64,000 nucleotides of DNA, from the NCBI RefSeq assembly GCF_003044305.1, contig NZ_PZOX01000005.1:387493-451492 (forward strand), written 5' to 3'. The position numbers were made by a program, and so were the translations under genes. The DNA comes from Vitiosangium sp. GDMCC 1.1324. GTDB taxonomy: Bacteria; Myxococcota; Myxococcia; Myxococcales; Myxococcaceae. Position 1 is the first letter of the stretch; each line of letters opens with the position of its first letter. The notes beneath the pieces were generated by a model. The model was not told the DNA's origin. It did no database searches and was given only the letters and a program-made list of their open reading frames with translations. Shown here piece by piece: positions 4,721-13,552 of this stretch.

Positions 4721-7171
4721 ATGTGGAAGAAAACCTGGCTACTCGGCATCCTGATGGCAGCGACCGCGCTGTCTGGCTGTTCCTCCTGCGGCGACAAGCC
4801 CGGTGGGGGCGGTAATACGGTGGATGGCGGAGATGGCGGCGGCGGCTCACAAAACGATGGAGGCGGCGGCTCTACCGACGGCGGCGGCGGCTCTACCGAC
4901 GGCGGCGGCGGCGGTTCTACCGATGGCGGCGGCGGCGGTTCTACCGATGGCGGCTCCACTGACGGAGGAGGAGGCGGCAGCCCCACGCTGGGCTCCCTGA
5001 CGATTTCTCCCACCAACCCGACCCTCGCTGTCACGGGCAGCACAGGCGTCCTCCAGGCCTTCACGGTGAGGGGGACCTTCACCGACGGGCACACGGAGGA
5101 CATGACGAGCCGGTCCAGCTTCAGCATCGACGATACGCGGCTGGGCACCTTCGGCGGAGCGAGCTTCACCTCGAGCACCACCGTCGGCGGCGCCAGCACC
5201 GTGCGTGCCCGGGTGGGCACCATGTCCGTCTCCACCCCCATCACGGTGCGGCTCGACCAGAAGGTGTCGGACACGCCTCCGGCCGGCAGCACGAGCACCA
5301 CGCCCGTGCCCGCCGATCCGGGCTCGAAGTTCGGCGGCACGGTGGACACCTCGTACAAACCGCAGATCGTCTACCCCAACAATGGCGTCCTGGTGCCGCC
5401 CAACCTCGGGCAGTTGGAGATCCACTTCCTGCCGAACAACGCCTCCACCTCGCTGTTCGAGCTCGCCTTCTCCAACAGCATCACCAACGTGCGCGTGTAC
5501 ATGCGCTGCTACCTGCCGTCGGGCTTCACCCTGCCCTCGGGAGTGAGCCGCGGTTGCATCTACACGCCCGAGGACAAGGTGTGGAAGTTCCTGGCCGAGA
5601 GCAACCGTGGCGGCCAGCCGGTGAAGGTCACCGTGCGCTCCACGGACGACTCGGGTTCTGGCACGGTGGGCGTGTCCGATCCCATCGCCATCCAGTTCGC
5701 CCGCGCCGAAATCAAGGGCGCGCTCTACTACTGGACCACCTCGGGTGGCACCGGCGTGATGCGCTACGACTTCGCCGGCGGCACGGGCACGCAGACGGCC
5801 TCGCCCGTACTGAGGGCCAGCAACATCAGCACCAGCGTGAGCTGCGTGGGCTGCCACGCGCTGAGCCGCAACGGCAAGAAGCTGGTGGCCGAGGTCAATG
5901 GCCAGAACGACGGCCGGCTCGCCCTGGTGGACCTGTCCACCTTCAAGAGCACCGACAAGATCCCCCTGTCGCAGGGTGGCGTGAAGCTGAGCAACTTCGA
6001 GTCGTGGAACCCGGACGGCACCAAGTTCGTCGGCGTCTACGCCGATAGCGGCACCTCCCGCTACTCCCTGCAGATCTTCAACGGCGACACGGCGGCCTTC
6101 GAGTCGGAGATCCCCAACAGCGGCGACTCCACCAACCCCGCCAACCACCCGGACTGGAGCCCGGATGGCCAGACGATCGCCTACATGTCCATGAGCAACA
6201 TCGGCTCGAGGACGAACCAGCGCAGCTGGATGGGCACCATCAAGATGGTGACGGCGAAGACGGGCGGCGGCTGGAACGCCCCGGTGACGGTGGTGGCTCC
6301 CGAGACCTACAAGAACCGGTACTACCCGGCCATCGCGCCCGACAACTCCTTCCTCGTCTACAACGAGTCCCTCTGCGTCACCGCCGATACGGACAAGAAC
6401 TGCAACGGCGATACGGACCCGTCCGCCCGGCTGTGGGCCGCGAAGCTGCAAGCCGGCGCCCAGCGGGTGGAGCTGGCCAAGGCCAACGAGGGCGGTGTGA
6501 TGGACAAGGGCGAGACGAAGCTGACCAACAGCTACCCGAAGTGGAGCCCCTTCGTGACGCGCGGCAACTCGGGCGACACCAGCCGGCTGATGTGGGTGAC
6601 GTTCTCCTCCTCGCGCAAGTACGGCCTGCGCGTGCCCATCACCACCGGAGGCGATGAGAACCCCAGCGGCACCCTGCTGTGGATGGCGGCGGTGGATCCC
6701 GACAAGGTGAGCGCGGGAGTGGATCCGTCCTACGCGTCCTTCGCCCTGCCCTTCCAGGACCTCAGCACCTCCAACCACATCGCCCAGTGGGCCCAGTACC
6801 TCGTGAGCAACGGGTGCTCCACGGTGGGCGAGGGGTGTAACTCGAGCGGTTCCACCTGCTGCAACGGCCTGCAGTGCGTGCAGACCAGCTACGATCCGCC
6901 CATCCCCTGCGACGTGGCCGGCGCCTGCGTGTGCCAGGCCATCCCGCAGTGCGCGCCGTCGTTCGAGAAGTGCTCGTCCGTCGCGCCCTGCTGCGACGGT
7001 CTGAGCTGCGTGGATGACTCCACCGGTGGCGCGTGCAGCGGCCCCAACTGCACCTGCAAGCCGCCGTGCTCCAACGTCAACCAGCCGTGCGGCGGCGCCT
7101 CGGCCTGCTGCGACGGTCTGCGGTGCACGGATACCTCGAGCGGCAGCGTCTGCCGGATCATCATCGAGTAG
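4721..7171 (+). CDS. large lipoprotein: Gly-rich STDGGGG repeats, Ig-like domain, TolB-like beta-propeller, C-terminal Cys-rich repeats
   Basis: Lipobox LSGCSSC. Has (GGGGSTD)n, a Big-like segment LTISPTNPTLAVTGS..., and WD40/TolB-like DWSPDGQTIAY / YPKWSP motifs. Three C-terminal CCNGLQC / CCDGLSC / CCDGLRC modules. Confidence 0.8.
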   Translation: MWKKTWLLGILMAATALSGCSSCGDKPGGGGNTVDGGDGGGGSQNDGGGGSTDGGGGSTDGGGGGSTDGGGGGSTDGGSTDGGGGGSPTLGSLTISPTNPTLAVTGSTGVLQAFTVRGTFTDGHTEDMTSRSSFSIDDTRLGTFGGASFTSSTTVGGASTVRARVGTMSVSTPITVRLDQKVSDTPPAGSTSTTPVPADPGSKFGGTVDTSYKPQIVYPNNGVLVPPNLGQLEIHFLPNNASTSLFELAFSNSITNVRVYMRCYLPSGFTLPSGVSRGCIYTPEDKVWKFLAESNRGGQPVKVTVRSTDDSGSGTVGVSDPIAIQFARAEIKGALYYWTTSGGTGVMRYDFAGGTGTQTASPVLRASNISTSVSCVGCHALSRNGKKLVAEVNGQNDGRLALVDLSTFKSTDKIPLSQGGVKLSNFESWNPDGTKFVGVYADSGTSRYSLQIFNGDTAAFESEIPNSGDSTNPANHPDWSPDGQTIAYMSMSNIGSRTNQRSWMGTIKMVTAKTGGGWNAPVTVVAPETYKNRYYPAIAPDNSFLVYNESLCVTADTDKNCNGDTDPSARLWAAKLQAGAQRVELAKANEGGVMDKGETKLTNSYPKWSPFVTRGNSGDTSRLMWVTFSSSRKYGLRVPITTGGDENPSGTLLWMAAVDPDKVSAGVDPSYASFALPFQDLSTSNHIAQWAQYLVSNGCSTVGEGCNSSGSTCCNGLQCVQTSYDPPIPCDVAGACVCQAIPQCAPSFEKCSSVAPCCDGLSCVDDSTGGACSGPNCTCKPPCSNVNQPCGGASACCDGLRCTDTSSGSVCRIIIE
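4855..4966 (+). repeat. in-frame tandem nucleotide repeat (21-24 bp units) encoding (G4-5 S T D)n
   Basis: ggcggcggcggctctaccgac occurs twice, ggcggcggcggcggttctaccgat twice, plus degenerate copies. Confidence 0.8.
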
Positions 7172-7187
7172 CCGCACCCGCCGCGGC

Positions 7188-7209
7188 GGCTCCGGTCCAC
7201 GCCGGAGCC
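7188..7209. terminator. GC hairpin between convergent genes (ggctccgg-tccacg-ccggagcc)
   Basis: 8-bp perfect stem located 17 nt after the TAG of the 4721..7171 gene. No clear U-tract. Confidence 0.35.
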
Positions 7210-7222
7210 GCCCGGTGAAGTC

Positions 7223-7942
7223 TCAAGGCGACAGGACGAGGCCGTCCGCCACGCACGACTCCACCGCGGCGCGGATGTCCGCCTCGGCCACGCTGGTCGC
7301 CTCCGCCACCTGAGGCGGCGTCAGTCCCTCCACCGCCATCTTCAACGCCAGCAGCGAACGATCGTTCGCTGACAGGTACATCGTCACCAGCCGCTCGGGG
7401 TGCCGCCACAGCAGCGCCATCTCCTGCCCCGGCTCCGGTCGCGCCCTCCGCTCCTTCGCCCGTACGTACGCGCAGAGCTGGAAGGGGTGCTCCAACACCA
7501 CCAGCGTCGGGTTCACCGTCAGCCGCTCCACCTTCTCCGGCACCGGCTCCATCGACGTGTACACGGCGAAGTCCGCCCACTCGAAGCGAGCCAGCGAGGG
7601 CAGGAAGTCCGGCAGGCCGCGCCGCTCCGCCTCGTCCGCGAGGAAGCCCGGAAAGCCCTCGCCCAGGTGGTTCATCTCGTAGGGACGCGAGGGCCTGGAC
7701 GCCTCGTAGGCCCGCCCCAGTTCCGCCCACAACGCCTCGTCCACGCACGCACGCGTCAGCGGGTAGAGCTTGTCCAGCGTGGACCTGCCGTGGTGGGCCA
7801 CCATCCGGCCGTAGAGCTCCACGCGCGAGCGCGGTGCGTCCCAGCCCGGGTGCGCCGCGTACAGCCGTTCCAGTGCGTCCGGGCCCGGGGTGAGGAAGAA
7901 CTCCGTCATCGAATCGAAGAAGCCGCGCAGCCCGGGTTTCAT
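7223..7942 (-). CDS. DUF2063 domain protein, MNIO partner subunit (BufC/MbnC-like)
   Basis: LERLYAAHPGWDAPRSRVELYGRMVAHH...PYEMNHLGEGFPGFL...LPDFLPSLARFEWADF matches the DUF2063 signature. The start ATG overlaps the DUF692 stop (ATGA). Confidence 0.8.
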   Translation of the reverse strand: MKPGLRGFFDSMTEFFLTPGPDALERLYAAHPGWDAPRSRVELYGRMVAHHGRSTLDKLYPLTRACVDEALWAELGRAYEASRPSRPYEMNHLGEGFPGFLADEAERRGLPDFLPSLARFEWADFAVYTSMEPVPEKVERLTVNPTLVVLEHPFQLCAYVRAKERRARPEPGQEMALLWRHPERLVTMYLSANDRSLLALKMAVEGLTPPQVAEATSVAEADIRAAVESCVADGLVLSP

Positions 7943-8787
7943 CGCGACTCCACCTCCGCCAGCACCGCGCGAGCCCGGTCCGCCTCGTCCAGCACGGCCT
8001 CCAACGAGGGAATGTCCTGATCCCATTCGATGAGCGTCGACACCGGCCCCGTGCGCTCCAGCACGTAGCGGTACAGCGACCACACGTCGTCGCAAACCGC
8101 CGCCCCGTGCGTGTCGATGATGACGTCCGGCAGGCGCTCGTGCCCCGCCAGGTGGATCTGCACCACCCGCTCCAGCGGCAGCGCGTCCACGAAGGCCCGC
8201 GGGTCATACCCGTGGTTCTGCGAGTTCACGTACACGTTGTTCACGTCCAGCAGCAGGCCACAGTCCGCCTGCTCCGCCACGTGCCGCAGGAAGTCCGCCT
8301 CGTGCAGGGTGCCCCCCGGCATGCGCGCGTAGTAGCTCGGGTTCTCCAGCAGGAAGGGCCGGCCCACCCGCTCCTTCACCTCGCGCACCCGCGCCACCAC
8401 GTGCTCCACCGCCTCCTCCGAGAAGGGCAGCGGCAGCAGATCATAGAGGTACGCCCCGCCCAACCGCGTGTAGCACAGGTGGTCCGAGAAGAAGGGCGCG
8501 TCCACCCGCTCCACCAACGCCTTCAGCCGCGAGAGGTAGTCCTCGTCCAGCGGCTCGGGCCCGCCGATGTTCAGCGCCACCCCATGGGGCAACACCGGCC
8601 AGCGCTCCACGCACGCATCCAGCGCGCGCTGGGGACGGCCTCCGAGCGTGAGGAAGTTCTCCGGGATGATCTCCACCCAGTCCAGCGCACGGGAGGTCTC
8701 CGGGAGCTGCGCGTAGAACTCGCGCCGCAACCCGATGCCCGCTCCGAGCGGCTTCAATCCATGTCTGCGCGCGTAGCTCACTGACAC
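7939..8787 (-). CDS. DUF692/UPF0276 multinuclear non-heme iron oxidase (MNIO; MbnB/TglH/BufB family)
   Basis: LKPLGAGIGLRREFYAQL...WVEIIPENF...HGVALNIGG...FFSDHLCYTRLGG...FLLENPSYY...VQIHLAGH...DTHGAAV are TIM-barrel DUF692 hallmarks. GTG start at 8787 with a GAGGTG SD 5 nt upstream. Confidence 0.85.
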   Translation of the reverse strand: MSVSYARRHGLKPLGAGIGLRREFYAQLPETSRALDWVEIIPENFLTLGGRPQRALDACVERWPVLPHGVALNIGGPEPLDEDYLSRLKALVERVDAPFFSDHLCYTRLGGAYLYDLLPLPFSEEAVEHVVARVREVKERVGRPFLLENPSYYARMPGGTLHEADFLRHVAEQADCGLLLDVNNVYVNSQNHGYDPRAFVDALPLERVVQIHLAGHERLPDVIIDTHGAAVCDDVWSLYRYVLERTGPVSTLIEWDQDIPSLEAVLDEADRARAVLAEVESR

Positions 8788-8873
8788 GTCGGCACCTCGG
8801 GAAAAGACACGGGCGGCGGGAAGAGGCTCCCCACCGCCCGAAAGAGAACCCCGGGGATTCCGGGGGCTATCCC

Positions 8874-9128
8874 TTACTGCGGCTTGGCGGCGCCACAGCC
8901 GTCCTTGCCACAGCCGTGCTCGCTGCCCTTCTCGGAGGTGGAGGCGGCCTTGCCGCTGCACTTGGCCTCGCCGCCCTTCTCCTGGGTGGCCTCGGCGCCA
9001 CCCTTGCAGGACGCCTCGGTGCCCTTCGCCTCGGAGGTGGCGGCCGCGGGCTTCGCGGTCGCACAGCCGGTGGCCAGAGAGCCGAGGGACAGGGTACCGA
9101 CGATGGCTGCCATGGTCTTGACGTTCAT
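8874..9128 (-). CDS. small secreted Cys-containing peptide, candidate MNIO (bufferin-like) RiPP precursor
   Basis: 84 aa: MNVKTMAAIVGTLSLGSLATGCATAKPAAATSEAKGTEASCKGGAEATQEKGGEAKCSGKAASTSEKGSEHGCGKDGCGAAKPQ. Sec/lipoprotein-type signal (LATGC), then a K/E/G/A/S-rich core with three repeats carrying Cys (EASCKGG, EAKCSGK, EHGCGKDGCG). An AGGAAA SD lies 4 nt before the ATG. It sits immediately upstream of, and co-directional with, the MNIO. Confidence 0.6.
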   Translation of the reverse strand: MNVKTMAAIVGTLSLGSLATGCATAKPAAATSEAKGTEASCKGGAEATQEKGGEAKCSGKAASTSEKGSEHGCGKDGCGAAKPQ

Positions 9129-9139
9129 GGTGTTTCCTT

Positions 9140-10669
9140 TCACTGCGTGAGGGGTGGCAACTGCACGTGGCGAGGACTCCCATCGCGAGAGACGAAGGGG
9201 TCGCGGTCAGACATACGCGCTCCGAATTTCGCGGTTACAGGGCCTCGGCGCGCTCCTTCCAGGGCTTCCCGCACCTGGCTGTCACGCGCGGCACCGAGCC
9301 TCACTCCGTCCGGCCCGGGCTCCACGCCCAGCGCTTGTAACAGAGGCTCCACCCCGGCAAAAGCAGGCTGGGACAGGTGGCGCTCGAGCAACTCGTGGAA
9401 GAGCGACCGACCCGCGACGGCATCCACCGCCGCACCAAACTCGTCGAAAGTTGCGGTAGGGCCGGAACTGGCGAGCCGCTCGAGCACCTCGTCCAGGCTC
9501 CGCGTGTTGCCAGTAGCGCGGCGCAACTCCACGTCCACGAGCAGGGCGAAGAGAGCCCCCGTCCAATAGATGCCCTGGAAGGAGGCGCCGTGAGTCATGA
9601 CGTCCTCCATCGTCCGGGTGCCCACGGCGGCGCGCCCACGGGAGAAACCGGAGACCAGCTCCGCCCAGGCCTGCTCCGGCGTCTGCCTGCCTGAGCGCGC
9701 TCGCGCCAGCTCCGTGTAGTAGGTGGCCAGCCCCTCGGACAGCCAGGCGATGTGCGGCACGAAGGTGGGGTGCGCCAGGTGGAGGAGCTCGTGCACGGCC
9801 ACCCAGTCCCGCGGGAAGAACTCGGGCCCCGCCTCCTGGCCCACCAGCACGGAGACGCTCGGCGGCGAGCTCCACAGCACCATGCCGAAGACGGCGGGTG
9901 CCTGGCGTCCCGGCACTGGGATGACGCGCACGGTGATGCGTGGGTACGGGAAGTGGCGCCGCACCGTGAGCACCTCGCTCGCGGCCTGGTGGAGCCACGC
10001 GCAGAGGCCGGCGTCATCCATGCGCGACATGTGGCCGAGCACCGCCACTTCCATCACCGCGTCCGGTAGCCGCACCGTGCACCGCCGTCCGCCGAAGGCA
10101 TGGAAACCCGAGTCCACCAGATCTCCACCCTCCAGCCGGTAGACGCCGCTCGCATCCGGTTCCCACGGCAGCAGCGCGTCCACGCCCTCCACCACGAGCT
10201 CCGCGCGAAGCGAGGGCGATACCACGCGAGGGCGCAACAACCAGGCCCGGCCCGCCACATGCCACGAGTCCCCTTCGCCCATGCCGGAGGAGAAGTCCGG
10301 GCGCGCCCCCCGGACGCGAGCCTCCAAGGGATAGCGGTAACGCAACAGGCGCGTGTCCCGCGGGACGAGGACGCGGCCCTCCGGAGACACGGACAGCTCG
10401 TGGCCGGAACCTTCCGGGCCGAAGACACGCACCCGGTCGACTCCGCCAGGTTGGGTGAAGAGGAAGTCCCGGGGGGCATTCTCACCAACGAGGACGAGCT
10501 CCACGTCCAGCGCATGCACCGGCTCGCGGACATAGGTGACGCGGTAGCGCAGCGCCGTCGGATCCTCGCCCGGCCGAAGCGGAAGCGTCCGAGCCGGCTG
10601 GCACGCCCCCAACACCAACAGCAGGGACACCCGTACCGCGAAGGAGAGGACCGGCCTGGATGAAGGCAT
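9140..10669 (-). CDS. HExxH zinc metalloprotease lipoprotein (MA-clan, M61/aminopeptidase-like)
   Basis: Lipobox LLLVLGAC and HELLHLAHP...EGLATYY (HExxH + downstream Glu). Its stop is 11 nt upstream of the precursor ORF. The start coordinate follows the ORF-track frame. Confidence 0.65.
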   Translation of the reverse strand: MPSSRPVLSFAVRVSLLLVLGACQPARTLPLRPGEDPTALRYRVTYVREPVHALDVELVLVGENAPRDFLFTQPGGVDRVRVFGPEGSGHELSVSPEGRVLVPRDTRLLRYRYPLEARVRGARPDFSSGMGEGDSWHVAGRAWLLRPRVVSPSLRAELVVEGVDALLPWEPDASGVYRLEGGDLVDSGFHAFGGRRCTVRLPDAVMEVAVLGHMSRMDDAGLCAWLHQAASEVLTVRRHFPYPRITVRVIPVPGRQAPAVFGMVLWSSPPSVSVLVGQEAGPEFFPRDWVAVHELLHLAHPTFVPHIAWLSEGLATYYTELARARSGRQTPEQAWAELVSGFSRGRAAVGTRTMEDVMTHGASFQGIYWTGALFALLVDVELRRATGNTRSLDEVLERLASSGPTATFDEFGAAVDAVAGRSLFHELLERHLSQPAFAGVEPLLQALGVEPGPDGVRLGAARDSQVREALEGARRGPVTAKFGARMSDRDPFVSRDGSPRHVQLPPLTQ

Positions 10670-11106
10670 CACGCACCCCGCTGCCCGCAGAAACCCGGAC
10701 ACTCTATCGGCGCACTCATGGTGTGGCCGGGAGACGAATCGTGAGGTCACTCCCCTGCCCCCAGACCGGCAAGGCCACCGATCACCTTCCGGGTCTCTCC
10801 TCAACGGACTCGCCGCCCCCCGATTCCCCACCCCGTTGCTGGTAAACCGTAGCGGTAAAACTTTGACAGACCTTCTAGGGCATGGCCCGACAGGTCGCAG
10901 AGCTGTCCACCAAGCATTGTGAAATCAAACGGTTAGCCACTTCAGGACGGGTGGGGACGATCACCAGGCCCTCCCTCCGTTCCGTTGAGGACAGGGGCGG
11001 TTGCGCTCGAAAACGTTTATTGCAAATCGGTAAATGCCTCCGCACAGTGGCGTGTCGGAGGGGCCGGGTACTGGGGTAGAGGACCCCCCATCCAGGAAGC
11101 GCGGAG

Positions 11107-12669
11107 ATGAACGAGAACGCACTCAACGCGAACGTGGGCCTGAAGCTGCGCAGCCTGAGACTCGCGCGGAACATCAAGCAGACGGACGCGGCCAAGGACC
11201 TGGGAGTCTCCCCGGCGTACCTGAACCTCATCGAGAAGGGCAAGCGGGTCATGCCCTTCCCGCTGCTGTGGAAGGCCCTGCGCTACTTCGACCAGGACCC
11301 CGAGCAGTTCATGTCCACGCTGGGCGAGGGCCGGGTGGACGAGGCGCTCGCGAAGCTGCTGGACGAGCCGCTGCTCAAGAGCCTCGACATCGATCCGGAG
11401 TCGCTGCAGAGCCTGTCGGCGGAGCCGAAGCTGGCGGGCACGGTGGCGGCGCTCTTCAACCTCTACAAGAACACGCGCACGCAACTGGAGAACGTGCTGG
11501 CGCAGCTCAACGCCGAGGAGCGGGCGCGCACGCAGTCGGTGCCGGGCAGCTCGGCGGGGCCGGGCCTGCGCTTCGACTACTCGCCCTTCGACGAGGTGAG
11601 TGACTTCCTGCAGTCGCACCACAACTACTTCCCCGAGCTGGAGGAGCAGGCCGAGGCGCTGCGGCGCGACTTCAAGCTGGGGCGCCTGCTCACCAGCCCG
11701 CAGTTGGTGCCGCTGCTGGAGGAGCGCTTCGGCTACCGCGTGCGCTTCGAGTCCGCGGTCAGCGGCTCCTCGGTGGTGCGCCGGTTCGATCCCGAGTCCC
11801 AGGAGCTCATCCTCTCGCCGGACCTGATGGAGCAGCCGCTCAAGTTCCAGCTCGCGACGTCCATCGGCCTGCTGGTGCTGGACCGGGAGAAGCTGGTGGA
11901 GCGCATCGTCGGTGCGGCGCGCACGCGGCACGCGGAGACGCTGCGCCTCATCAAGGTGAACCTGGCCAACTACTTCGCCGGCGCGCTGATGCTGCCCTAC
12001 GGGGACTTCTTCAAGGAGGTGGAGCGCACGCGCTACGACGTGGAGCTGCTCTCCAACCTCTTCGGCACCACGTACGAGACGGTGGCCCACCGGCTGTGCA
12101 ACCTGTCGGACCCCAAGCGCAAGGGCCTGCCCTTCCACTTCCTGCGCTCGGACATCGCCGGCAACATCTCCAAGCGCTACAGCGGCACCGGCATCAAGTT
12201 CGCCACGGGCGGCGGCTCATGCGGCAAGTGGGCCGTGCACCTGGCCTTCCTCAACCCGTCCCAGCTCACCCGGCAGTATTCGATGATGCCGGACGGCACC
12301 TCGTACTTCTGCTTCGCGAAGGTGCAGCTGCAGCCGATTGAAGGCTCCATCGTGCGCGGCACGGCGTACTCCATCGGCCTGGGCACGCACGCGGAGAACG
12401 CCAAGTACCTGGCGTACGGCCTGCCCACCACGGATCTGCGCAAGGACGCGGTGCCCAGCGGCATCTCCTGCCGCTTCTGCGAGCGCACCGACTGCAACCA
12501 GCGCGCGGCCGCCAGCTACCGCTTCGCCTTCTCCTTCGACGAGTACACCAAGAAGGATTGCTTCTTCTCGCCCCTGCTCGTCCACGAGGCCGGCCGGGGT
12601 GGCGATCACCTGCGTGCGGATTCGCTGGACAAGCAGCCGCGCCGACGCAACAAGGGCGAGGAACACTGA
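11107..12669 (+). CDS. XRE-family transcriptional regulator, COG3800-type (HTH + ImmA/IrrE-like + DUF2083)
   Basis: N-terminal HTH (LRSLRLARNIKQTDAAKDLGVSPAYLNLIEKGKR) and a C-terminal region with CxxC...CxxC (CGKW...CRFCERTDC). Confidence 0.8.
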   Translation: MNENALNANVGLKLRSLRLARNIKQTDAAKDLGVSPAYLNLIEKGKRVMPFPLLWKALRYFDQDPEQFMSTLGEGRVDEALAKLLDEPLLKSLDIDPESLQSLSAEPKLAGTVAALFNLYKNTRTQLENVLAQLNAEERARTQSVPGSSAGPGLRFDYSPFDEVSDFLQSHHNYFPELEEQAEALRRDFKLGRLLTSPQLVPLLEERFGYRVRFESAVSGSSVVRRFDPESQELILSPDLMEQPLKFQLATSIGLLVLDREKLVERIVGAARTRHAETLRLIKVNLANYFAGALMLPYGDFFKEVERTRYDVELLSNLFGTTYETVAHRLCNLSDPKRKGLPFHFLRSDIAGNISKRYSGTGIKFATGGGSCGKWAVHLAFLNPSQLTRQYSMMPDGTSYFCFAKVQLQPIEGSIVRGTAYSIGLGTHAENAKYLAYGLPTTDLRKDAVPSGISCRFCERTDCNQRAAASYRFAFSFDEYTKKDCFFSPLLVHEAGRGGDHLRADSLDKQPRRRNKGEEH

Positions 12670-12682
12670 GCCCCATCCCCCC

Positions 12683-13552
12683 ATGAGCATCTCCGACACC
12701 GAACGCGCCCATATCCTCGAAGCCCTGCAGAACCAGCGCAACGCGCTCGCCACGACGCGCATCACCGGTGAGCCCGGGGAGATCGGCCGGGGGCTCGTGC
12801 ACCTGGCCGAGCTGCACGGCATGCTTGAGGACCACGCCGAGAGCCGCCGTCACTACGAGGAGGCGCTGGGCTTCTTCCAGACGGCCGGGGACAAGCACGG
12901 CCAGGCGCAGGTGTACTTCGGCCTGGGCGTGGCACGCGCCAACTTCGAGGACCACCGGGGCGCCATCGAGCAGATCGCCAAGGCCGCCATGCTCTTCAAC
13001 GAGCTGAAGGACCAGGAGAACGAGGCGCTGTGCCGCGCGGCCGTCGGCGAGTCGCTGCGCTCGCTCGGTCAGGCCAAGGCCGCCGAGGAGAAGTACCAGG
13101 AGGCGCTGCTGCTCTACCGGCAGTCGAAGAACGGGCCGCGCATCGCCCAGCTGCTGCTGGACATCGGCGACATCCGCATGGAGGCGGGCGAGTACGAGGC
13201 GGCGCGCAAGCGCTTCGCCGAGGCGATGCCGCTGCTGGAGAAGGAGGGAGACCCGGAGCCGCTGGCGCTGTGCCGGTTGCTGCTGGGTGAGGCCGAGGGC
13301 CTGCTGGGCAACCACAACTCGGCGCGACCGTTGCTCCAGGCGGCGGTGGACCTCTACGAGGAACTGCACGATCACGTGTACGAGGCGCGAGCCCGGTGGG
13401 ACCTGAGCATCGCGTACACCTTCGCCCAGGAGTGGAAGGCCGCGCGCGAGCAGCTCGAGGCGGTGATTCCGCTCTTCGAGGAGCAGGGACGCCAGGACGA
13501 CGTGGCGAAGGCCCGCAAGGTCCTGGCGCACTTCGACGCGCGCGGGGTGTGA
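12683..13552 (+). CDS. tetratricopeptide repeat protein
   Basis: Multiple TPR-like A/L/E-rich helices (EALGFFQTAGDKHGQAQVYFGLGVA...). Starts 14 nt after the regulator. Confidence 0.7.
   Translation: MSISDTERAHILEALQNQRNALATTRITGEPGEIGRGLVHLAELHGMLEDHAESRRHYEEALGFFQTAGDKHGQAQVYFGLGVARANFEDHRGAIEQIAKAAMLFNELKDQENEALCRAAVGESLRSLGQAKAAEEKYQEALLLYRQSKNGPRIAQLLLDIGDIRMEAGEYEAARKRFAEAMPLLEKEGDPEPLALCRLLLGEAEGLLGNHNSARPLLQAAVDLYEELHDHVYEARARWDLSIAYTFAQEWKAAREQLEAVIPLFEEQGRQDDVAKARKVLAHFDARGV

Follow-up and report, generated by a model that had tools for sequence, protein, structure and literature searches.

A predicted M61-like lipoprotein peptidase as a probable accessory of lipid-anchored, bufferin-like peptide clusters in Myxococcota

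The question raised by this locus is whether a metalloprotease gene standing next to the genes of a peptide made on the ribosome and modified after translation (RiPP) takes part in the life of that peptide or simply lies beside it. The locus belongs to a stretch of 64,000 nucleotides from Vitiosangium sp. GDMCC 1.1324 (contig NZ_PZOX01000005.1, positions 387,493 to 451,492), hereafter called the window, in which four genes run head to tail on the minus strand and encode the protease, a precursor peptide, a maturase of the MNIO family and its DUF2063 partner. The first-pass annotation of this DNA described the protease as a lipoprotein zincin encoded by the first gene of an MNIO operon, and suggested that it could trim a low-complexity N-terminal region of the secreted core after modification, or else provide immunity or processing. 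The best and most likely explanation of the sequences compared here is that the protease belongs as a dedicated accessory to a bufferin/oxazolin-like RiPP cluster of the lipoprotein type. A functional linkage of some kind between the protease and the peptide cluster is highly probable, and the protease may well act in the envelope as an endopeptidase, cutting through the tether of a lipidated peptide and releasing its metal-binding core.

The evidence for linkage comes from a sample of one genome per species, which yielded 80 loci with relatives of the protease at 30-77% identity. Clade I of these relatives comprises Archangium, Myxococcus, Corallococcus, Pyxidicoccus, Hyalangium and Citreicoccus, together with the deeper metagenome-assembled genomes (MAGs) L045-L049, and in every one of its loci with enough flank (44 loci, namely L001-L044 minus three short contigs, plus L047 and L049) the genes lie on one strand in the order protease, optional YceI gene, precursor, MNIO and DUF2063, a YceI-like secreted protein being encoded between protease and precursor in 18 loci of the clade. 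Within this clade the upstream regulator lies anywhere between 0.35 and 5.7 kb from the protease, the downstream genes differ, and the flanks of L045 and L049 are unrelated (an H+-pyrophosphatase; DUF2079 and VgrG-like genes). Two further MNIO-linked protease clades, in Polyangia and Sandaracinaceae, appear in a neighbour-joining tree: four loci (L070, L072, L077 and L079) keep the clade I gene order and have BufA2-like cores, and seven (L051, L058, L061, L067, L073, L075 and L078) have the order precursor, MNIO, DUF2063 and protease. The genes of about 300 and 245 codons found upstream of distant homologues were also considered as an ABC ATPase and permease, an identity that was rejected when Pfam assigned them to MNIO and DUF2063. 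With three protease clades, two gene orders, variable flanks and two core types, the link between protease and MNIO genes is more than adjacency, and the synteny seen in these clades answers the doubt, voiced in the first-pass annotation, that the protease might merely adjoin the MNIO pair.

The precursors found in these loci share a common architecture. In the orthologues from 46 loci, Cys22 is invariant and follows a conserved hydrophobic region, so placed that the precursor is a predicted lipoprotein; after the lipobox comes a variable stretch rich in Ala, Glu, Thr and Pro, and then a conserved C-terminal motif of the EKGxE(G/H)xCGxGxCG type (EKGxE(G/H)xCGxxxCG). The window precursor has its cysteines 41, 57, 73 and 78 in ExxC(G/K/S) contexts, and these are probable MNIO targets by analogy with the EGKCG oxazolins (PMC12452194, PMC13056109). 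What had been taken for the low-complexity N-terminal region of a secreted core is instead a predicted lipid-anchored tether, the lipobox of the precursor itself having been overlooked in the first-pass annotation. Searches of the window precursor against Pfam and NCBIfam gave no family match, including to Buf1/DUF2282, Buf2 and Buf_EGKCG/HvfA, and its relatives come near to such models without reaching them, the peptide of L028 matching the HvfA KCGExKCG model at E=0.026, below the cut-off, and that of L070 matching the BufA2 model at E=7e-11, with 42 bits against a cut-off of 60. In the distant linked clades, all precursors recovered combine a lipobox with a low-complexity tether that is long and acidic, and their cores are of two kinds: one (GEGSCGEGSCS or GSCGGKDGSCGG) is found in L049, L051, L058, L061, L067, L073, L075 and L078, and the other, BufA2-like (CKGxNxCKGxGxC), in L070, L072, L077 and L079. 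Since every linked precursor recovered is tethered and has a lipobox, with either kind of core, the protease appears to track the lipid-anchored tether rather than a particular core.

The same association was approached from the maturase side by means of an MNIO protein alignment, with which metagenome contigs were scanned to give 80 MNIO-centred loci. As judged with a family hidden Markov model on six-frame open reading frames (ORFs), only 5 of these 80 loci hold the protease (L087, L089, L109, L118 and L132). Four of the five (L087, L089, L109 and L132) have a lipobox precursor and the order protease, precursor, MNIO and DUF2063, and in L118 the contig does not extend to the precursor and the protease comes after DUF2063. 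When the comparison was limited to loci whose flanks reach 2 kb or more upstream and 2.5 kb or more downstream, the protease was present in 4 of 8 loci with a lipobox precursor and in 0 of 21 with an ordinary signal peptide (Fisher exact p=0.003, a value that overstates independence, the positive loci being mutually related, and is indicative only).

These observations also bear on the alternative that the protease is a general envelope housekeeping peptidase or aminopeptidase, whose proximity to the MNIO genes would come from descent of the gene order or, at the very most, from a common regulon, with no action on the peptide. We regard this as unlikely, even though the protein family is large, an exhaustive search across 1.84 billion representatives (50% identity clusters) having found 1,527 of its clusters at E<=1e-10, many of its members in Polyangium and in the Beta- and Gammaproteobacteria have unrelated neighbours, the ScfR and TPR genes upstream are also syntenic in Cystobacterineae, and the precursor seemingly has a promoter of its own. 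A housekeeping enzyme does not explain why the link recurs in three protease clades with two gene orders and different flanks, why it persists in L045 and L049 despite their unrelated surroundings, or why, in the MNIO-centred sample, it is restricted to lipobox precursors. In the other protease clades, some of which have two tandem paralogues, there is no MNIO gene within 10 kb; a common context was sought for these unlinked homologues and none was found, their neighbours being heterogeneous (an HMA P-type ATPase with an extracytoplasmic function (ECF) sigma factor, a LolA-like protein, an AraC regulator, HAD/TerB, UvrD, and CbiM/DUF2214/amidase). The second doubt raised in the first-pass annotation, that the protease belongs to a housekeeping aminopeptidase family with unrelated conserved neighbours, is likewise not borne out by the synteny with the MNIO pair in relatives.

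As to the protein itself, the minus-strand ORF that encloses its gene spans 9140..10831, and the ATG at 10669 gives a product of 509 residues that is 100% identical, over its full length, to a protein recorded at NCBI for Vitiosangium sp. GDMCC 1.1324. The lipobox (LLVLGAC), the HELLH motif (residues 293-297, nt 9793..9779) and the downstream glutamate, all described earlier, are present, the third zinc ligand being E312 in WLSEGLATY (nt 9736..9734). Cys23 is nearly invariant in an alignment of 17 homologues, motif inspection places a lipobox in most Myxococcota homologues, and the protease is accordingly a predicted lipoprotein. All 81 family members compared have H293, E294, H297, W309, E312, G313, W369 and D379; the E312 motif aligns with W(L/F)xEG of the M61 structures, and Y368 aligns with their YY/Y position in HMMER alignments. 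By these motifs the protein has the intact catalytic signature of a gluzincin of clan MA(E).

The family to which this gluzincin belongs is sizeable and has no model of its own, as no NCBIfam model matches the protease. The assignment to Pfam that had been proposed as a check came out in part: fold and profile comparisons are M61-like, but the Pfam M61 profile (PF05299) gives only 18.1-18.3 bits, below its gathering cut-off of 22. Among 34 diverse relatives, 24 match this profile weakly (E<0.01, the best at 1.4e-6). The one match of a phmmer search of PDB sequences was an M61 protein labelled 'putative glycyl aminopeptidase' (E=0.002), and a profile built from the 34 relatives matched 7xyo at E=3.4e-14 across both domains; the M61 members 7xyo, 8j9c and 4fgm are the sole PDB sequence matches of the protease and of the family profile. 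An AlphaFold2 model, built from an alignment of 17 orthologues, has a mean predicted local distance difference test (pLDDT) score of 80.7 and a predicted template modelling (pTM) score of 0.77, and consists of an N-terminal beta domain and a helical catalytic domain, residues 480-509 being disordered (pLDDT 26-28). When this model was compared with the PDB by Foldseek, M61 structures led (7xyo at E=1e-19, 8j9c and 4fgm), followed by M1 aminopeptidases and LTA4 hydrolase; there were 130 matches at E<=0.001, and 50 of 50 among the matches listed were M61 or M1. Model and search agree on a thermolysin-like catalytic fold placed after a beta-sandwich domain, as in M1 and M61 enzymes, and the protease is best described as a predicted divergent M61-like peptidase, a sister group by sequence.

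One further motif concerns the mode of cleavage. The Glu of the GxMEN motif of M1 exopeptidases binds the free amino terminus of the substrate. The strand found at the position of this motif in the protease reads FGMVLW, with no Glu, which hints at endopeptidase action, the equivalence with GxMEN being drawn from position and secondary structure only. A different class of HExxH proteins was also considered, namely the alpha-ketoglutarate-dependent oxygenases (PflC/PosC, adjamnio-III), and was ruled out by fold, size and export signal. The HExxH oxygenase-like proteins of RiPP clusters are cytoplasmic, have about 270-390 residues and adjoin MNIO or nitroreductase genes (PMC12452194; PMC12636437), whereas the protease has about 480 residues, an export signal and an M61/M1 peptidase fold.

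A course of events can be proposed from these features. The C-terminal cysteines of the precursor would be modified in the cytoplasm by the MNIO/DUF2063 pair, as the membership of the two enzymes in their families suggests, and the precursor would then be exported by Sec and lipidated at Cys22 through the general lipoprotein pathway, as its lipobox and the precedent of the DAG-RiPPs suggest. It would thereafter reside on the membrane as a long acidic low-complexity tether bearing a small metal-binding head, and the protease, anchored in the same compartment, would cut the tether or cut beside the lipidated cysteine, with the core being released or trimmed. Because most Myxococcota members of the protease family have a lipobox, the enzyme would meet the lipopeptide on the envelope membrane, and because it is associated exclusively with tethered precursors, cutting of the tether is the most economical reading. 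A more specific version, which we put forward tentatively and as less probable than tether cleavage in general, is that a copper-binding peptide of myxobacteria exists in two states, one lipid-anchored on its acidic tether and the other a small diffusible chalkophore of methanobactin size, cut free by the M61-like endopeptidase. Should this hold, it would be a case of RiPP release by a dedicated sheddase, and not by leader removal or by a transporter. The immunity role that the first-pass annotation had also considered is without support.

YceI proteins bind lipids and polyisoprenoids, and the YceI-like protein of the clade I loci is a secreted protein of about 210 residues (PF04264, E=5e-19; for example 11426-12061 in L013). 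Its gene is present in L013, L018, L020, L021, L023, L025, L026, L028, L031, L033, L035-L038, L040, L041, L043 and L044; in L067, which has the other gene order, a YceI-like gene lies just after the protease (11302-11886), and there is none in the window. A protein that binds lipids might deal with either the lipopeptide or its lipidated remnant.

Several points weigh against the proposal that the protease is dedicated to the peptide and cuts its tether. A triacylated lipoprotein offers no free N-terminus, and canonical M61 enzymes are aminopeptidases. Both the substrate and the cleavage site are putative, and a conserved cleavage motif was sought in the tethers across the clades, with none evident. 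Of the 36 genome loci that are most distant, about 20 (in Polyangium and the Beta- and Gammaproteobacteria) have no MNIO gene nearby, so that the family is not exclusively dedicated to RiPPs. The ScfR and TPR genes upstream are syntenic too throughout Cystobacterineae, and the conservation of the block there must therefore be put down in part to plain vertical inheritance. Four metagenome loci (L082, L085, L088 and L090) have lipobox precursors with no member of the protease family within about 8 kb, and since half of the well-flanked lipobox loci are without it, the protease is not obligatory; to this is added the mutual relatedness of the positive metagenome loci mentioned above. Lastly, co-transcription of protease and precursor is only possible, given that the precursor likely has a promoter of its own (see below).

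Even if the protease acts on the peptide, it may do so for a purpose other than maturation. As a turnover or recycling enzyme, it would degrade metal-loaded or damaged lipopeptide, serving copper recovery or disposal or the clearance of spent peptide, and would not make the active form. The co-occurrence evidence is the same for this reading as for maturation, clearance would suit as an optional function, half of the lipobox-type clusters having no such protease, and bufferins act stoichiometrically as copper chelators (PMC11626156). Nevertheless, a biosynthetic step would account equally well for a gene that stands ahead of the precursor and is tightly conserved in clade I; the present data do not separate the two, and we hold turnover to be rather improbable.

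Less probable again is that the protease is a true M61 aminopeptidase, which would trim the Gly/Ala-rich tether after a first cut by another enzyme, or would remove a non-N-acylated diacylglyceryl-cysteine and so free the whole peptide. Canonical M61 enzymes are described as glycyl and alanyl aminopeptidases (Pfam PF05299 description), the tethers are rich in Gly and Ala, and RiPP peptidases of the M1 family such as AplP combine endopeptidase and aminopeptidase activities (PMC10885120). An exopeptidase is, however, less in keeping with the lack of Glu in the strand FGMVLW, with the endopeptidase activity of the closest relative, MfuP, and with the N-acylation that is normal for lipoproteins of Gram-negative bacteria (PMC13056109). 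Very improbable is a reversed relation, with the metal-chelating lipopeptide not a substrate of the zincin but its metallochaperone, its guard against copper mis-metallation or its inhibitor: both products are predicted lipoproteins of the same compartment, and an HMA P-type ATPase and ECF sigma factor beside some unlinked Polyangium homologues hint at metal stress, but the idea is purely speculative, has no precedent in the literature consulted, and leaves unexplained why the protease is associated with two unrelated core types but only with tethered, lipidated precursors.

The block in the window, whose features are collected in Table 1, can be read in more detail at the DNA level. Its MNIO scores 329.2 bits against the BufB model, above the cut-off of 310, and 302 bits against the HvfB model, below the cut-off of 360, and its DUF2063 protein matches NCBIfam HvfC at E=5e-14, under the cut-off. 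The start of the DUF2063 gene overlaps the MNIO stop as ATGA (7942-7939), and the gap between precursor and MNIO is 86 nt. At the other end, the protease stop codon (TGA, 9142..9140) is followed by 11 nt (aaggaaacacc) and then by the precursor ATG at 9128, which confirms the spacing first read for this junction. In the DNA alignment, only Vitiosangium and one lineage of Archangium show these 11 nt, most relatives having a gap of 50-200 nt or one that holds the YceI-like gene. The short gap is a consequence of the loss of the ancestral stop codon of the protease, the Vitiosangium ORF reading about 30 codons through DNA that is intergenic in Archangium; the resulting C-terminal extension is missing in 14 of the 17 aligned homologues.

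The stretch thus gained by the ORF holds a conserved promoter-like element (TGTAACC-N17-GTATGT), after which comes a conserved leader with a ribosome-binding site, CACGCAGTGAAAGGAA, and the precursor is therefore probably transcribed from a promoter of its own that lies within the protease ORF. The protease gene does head the block, as the first-pass annotation had it, but the designation of an operon is less certain, given a gap produced by a lost stop codon and the promoter-like element before the precursor. A scan for sigma-70 promoters over 7000-11300 found nothing, which is uninformative for a myxobacterium of 69% GC. The two terminator-like hairpins after the precursor stop, G+C-rich and with T-rich tails, lie ahead of the MNIO start (8810-8865); in the region, 4 terminator-like sites were found against 1.9 expected from shuffles. 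These hairpins suggest an abundant transcript of protease and precursor, or of the precursor only, with attenuated read-through into MNIO, and look like an attenuator that would keep precursor transcripts above those of the enzymes.

Table 1. Features of the protease-precursor-MNIO-DUF2063 block, in positions of the window
Feature	Position	Strand	Basis
509-aa M61-like gluzincin lipoprotein (predicted)	9140..10669	-	Pfam M61 profile, AlphaFold2 model, Foldseek
Protease lipobox L-G-A-C (LLVLGAC), Cys23	10601..10612	-	Motif inspection, N-terminus MPSSRPVLSFAVRVSLLLVLGAC
Zinc-binding signature, HELLH (293-297) to WLSEG (E312)	9734..9793	-	Conservation in 81 family members
Y368, candidate catalytic tyrosine	9566..9568	-	Kept in 79 of 81 family members
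Non-conserved C-terminal extension, about 30 aa	9143..9238	-	Model pLDDT, homologue alignment, DNA alignment
Conserved promoter-like element inside the end of the protease ORF	about 9240..9208	-	Archangium DNA alignment
Precursor peptide, 84 aa	8874..9128	-	Lipoprotein signal peptide, Ala/Glu/Thr/Lys-rich tether, four Cys
Precursor lipobox L-A-T-G-C (SLATGC), Cys22	9063..9077	-	Motif inspection; MNVKTMAAIVGTLSLGSLATGC ends in the lipobox
Cys-containing core region, probable MNIO target sites	8895..9008	-	Sequence reading
Two terminator-like hairpins right after the precursor stop	8865..8849, 8840..8810	-	Pattern match only
MNIO (BufB-type) maturase, 282 aa, GTG start	7939..8787	-	PF05114 E=3e-106; NCBIfam NF050167 BufB
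DUF2063 partner (BufC/HvfC-like)	7223..7942	-	PF09836, 43.2 bits against a cut-off of 27.2

The surroundings of the block, in the window and in other genomes, hold further genes of note. Convergent with it lies a gene for an 816-aa lipoprotein (4721-7171, plus strand), with a Gly/Asp-rich repeat tether, a weak match to PD40/TolB-like beta-propellers and three C-terminal Cys-rich CCxGLxC repeats; it adjoins the MNIO block only in the Archangium/Vitiosangium loci L001-L007. On the upstream side are a divergent ScfR/RamB-like regulator (11107-12669, plus strand), with helix-turn-helix, M78/IrrE-like and ScfRs domains, and a TPR protein (12659-13552, plus strand), both 82-96% conserved across Cystobacterineae, far above the MNIO block itself. 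An anomaly of GC skew at 40-42 kb of the window covers ordinary genes.

Among the other loci, L049 (5001-8542), in a MAG labelled Planctomycetota, has the complete block, with a protease of 42% identity, MNIO, DUF2063 and a precursor with a lipobox and four GSCGGKD repeats, and reflects either horizontal transfer or a binning error. In Betaproteobacteria, L059 (9554-12927), L066 (4537-8050) and L069 (222-3654) have two tandem protease paralogues flanking a DUF2214 membrane protein, with CbiM-like and methionine synthase genes upstream, an amidase gene downstream and no MNIO nearby. In Polyangium, L052 (5556-10975), L054 and L064 have a protease homologue divergent from the genes of an HMA-domain P-type ATPase and an ECF sigma factor, a context that may reflect metal stress even where no MNIO is present.

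Bufferins and oxazolins form a very large class of RiPPs. Their maturation, in the literature cited here, needs only general signal peptidases, and lipidated members have been recognised recently. Action of the protease on the peptide, if it takes place, would add a processing step, one that decides between retention of the metal-binding head on the membrane and its release, and this would bear on the copper protection or acquisition provided by these peptides. Moreover, RiPP tailoring by an M61 endopeptidase of the MfuP type, of which one case is known, would be extended to a second and unrelated RiPP class.

When set beside the systems already described, the window block agrees with the bufferin and oxazolin clusters (BufABC(D), HvfABC) in its MNIO, which passes the BufB model, in its DUF2063 partner and in a precursor with an export signal and ExxCG-like cysteines. 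The published clusters, by contrast, consist of precursor, MNIO, DUF2063 and DoxX, with no protease mentioned (PMC12452194, PMC11626156), in keeping with the first-pass annotation, which held that known operons do not usually include a dedicated protease; the window block is without a DoxX gene and its precursor fits no bufferin or HvfA model. Clusters specific to Myxococcota are not mentioned in the surveys of MNIO systems (PMC12452194; PMC11626156). The DAG-RiPPs lipo-NedABC and lipo-DybAH are modified by MNIO enzymes in the cytoplasm and then pass through Sec and Lgt/Lsp/Lnt to become triacylated lipopeptides (PMC13056109). They share with the window a lipobox precursor paired with an MNIO, but their clusters are described without a conserved protease, whereas here an M61-like lipoprotein recurs across Myxococcota. 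In one Spirosoma cluster, a secreted prolyl oligopeptidase of the S9 family has been suggested to cleave a lipidated ChrH-type peptide (PMC13056109), so that the idea of tether cutting has a precedent with an unrelated enzyme.

Some likenesses are also found among the peptidases. MfuP (7xyo) is an M61 endopeptidase of a class II lanthipeptide cluster of Myxococcus fulvus that cuts the modified core and not the leader (PMC10885120). It is the best structural and the best profile match of the protease among solved structures, it likewise comes from a myxobacterial RiPP cluster, and it is itself a zinc-dependent endopeptidase acting on a modified peptide (PMC10885120). The identity between the two is about 20%, however, and the MfuP cluster has a PCAT exporter and a cut inside a lanthionine ring, whereas the window protein is a predicted lipoprotein that stands with MNIO/DUF2063 and a predicted lipid-anchored precursor as its putative substrate. 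Canonical M61 enzymes (PF05299; 8j9c, 4fgm) share with it the N-terminal beta domain, the thermolysin-like domain, HExxH, the Glu of W(L/F)xEG and the downstream Tyr; the window protein differs in scoring below the Pfam cut-off, in being shorter (about 470 residues when mature) and predicted to be lipid-anchored, in having no detected PDZ domain and in having no acidic residue in the presumed GxMEN strand. The AplP-like M1 peptidases of class III/IV lanthipeptides belong to the same gluzincin clan and act in RiPP processing (PMC10885120), and M1 enzymes come after M61 in the fold search, but AplP is cytoplasmic, removes leaders with combined endopeptidase and aminopeptidase activity and has a large M1 C-terminal domain, none of which is predicted for the window protein. 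Both the lipidated subsets of oxazolins and bufferins (PMC13056109) and the tailoring of a RiPP by an M61 endopeptidase, MfuP (PMC10885120), are already known; the element that appears to be new is that, across Myxococcota, an M61-like lipoprotein peptidase is repeatedly paired with bufferin-like precursors of the lipidated kind.

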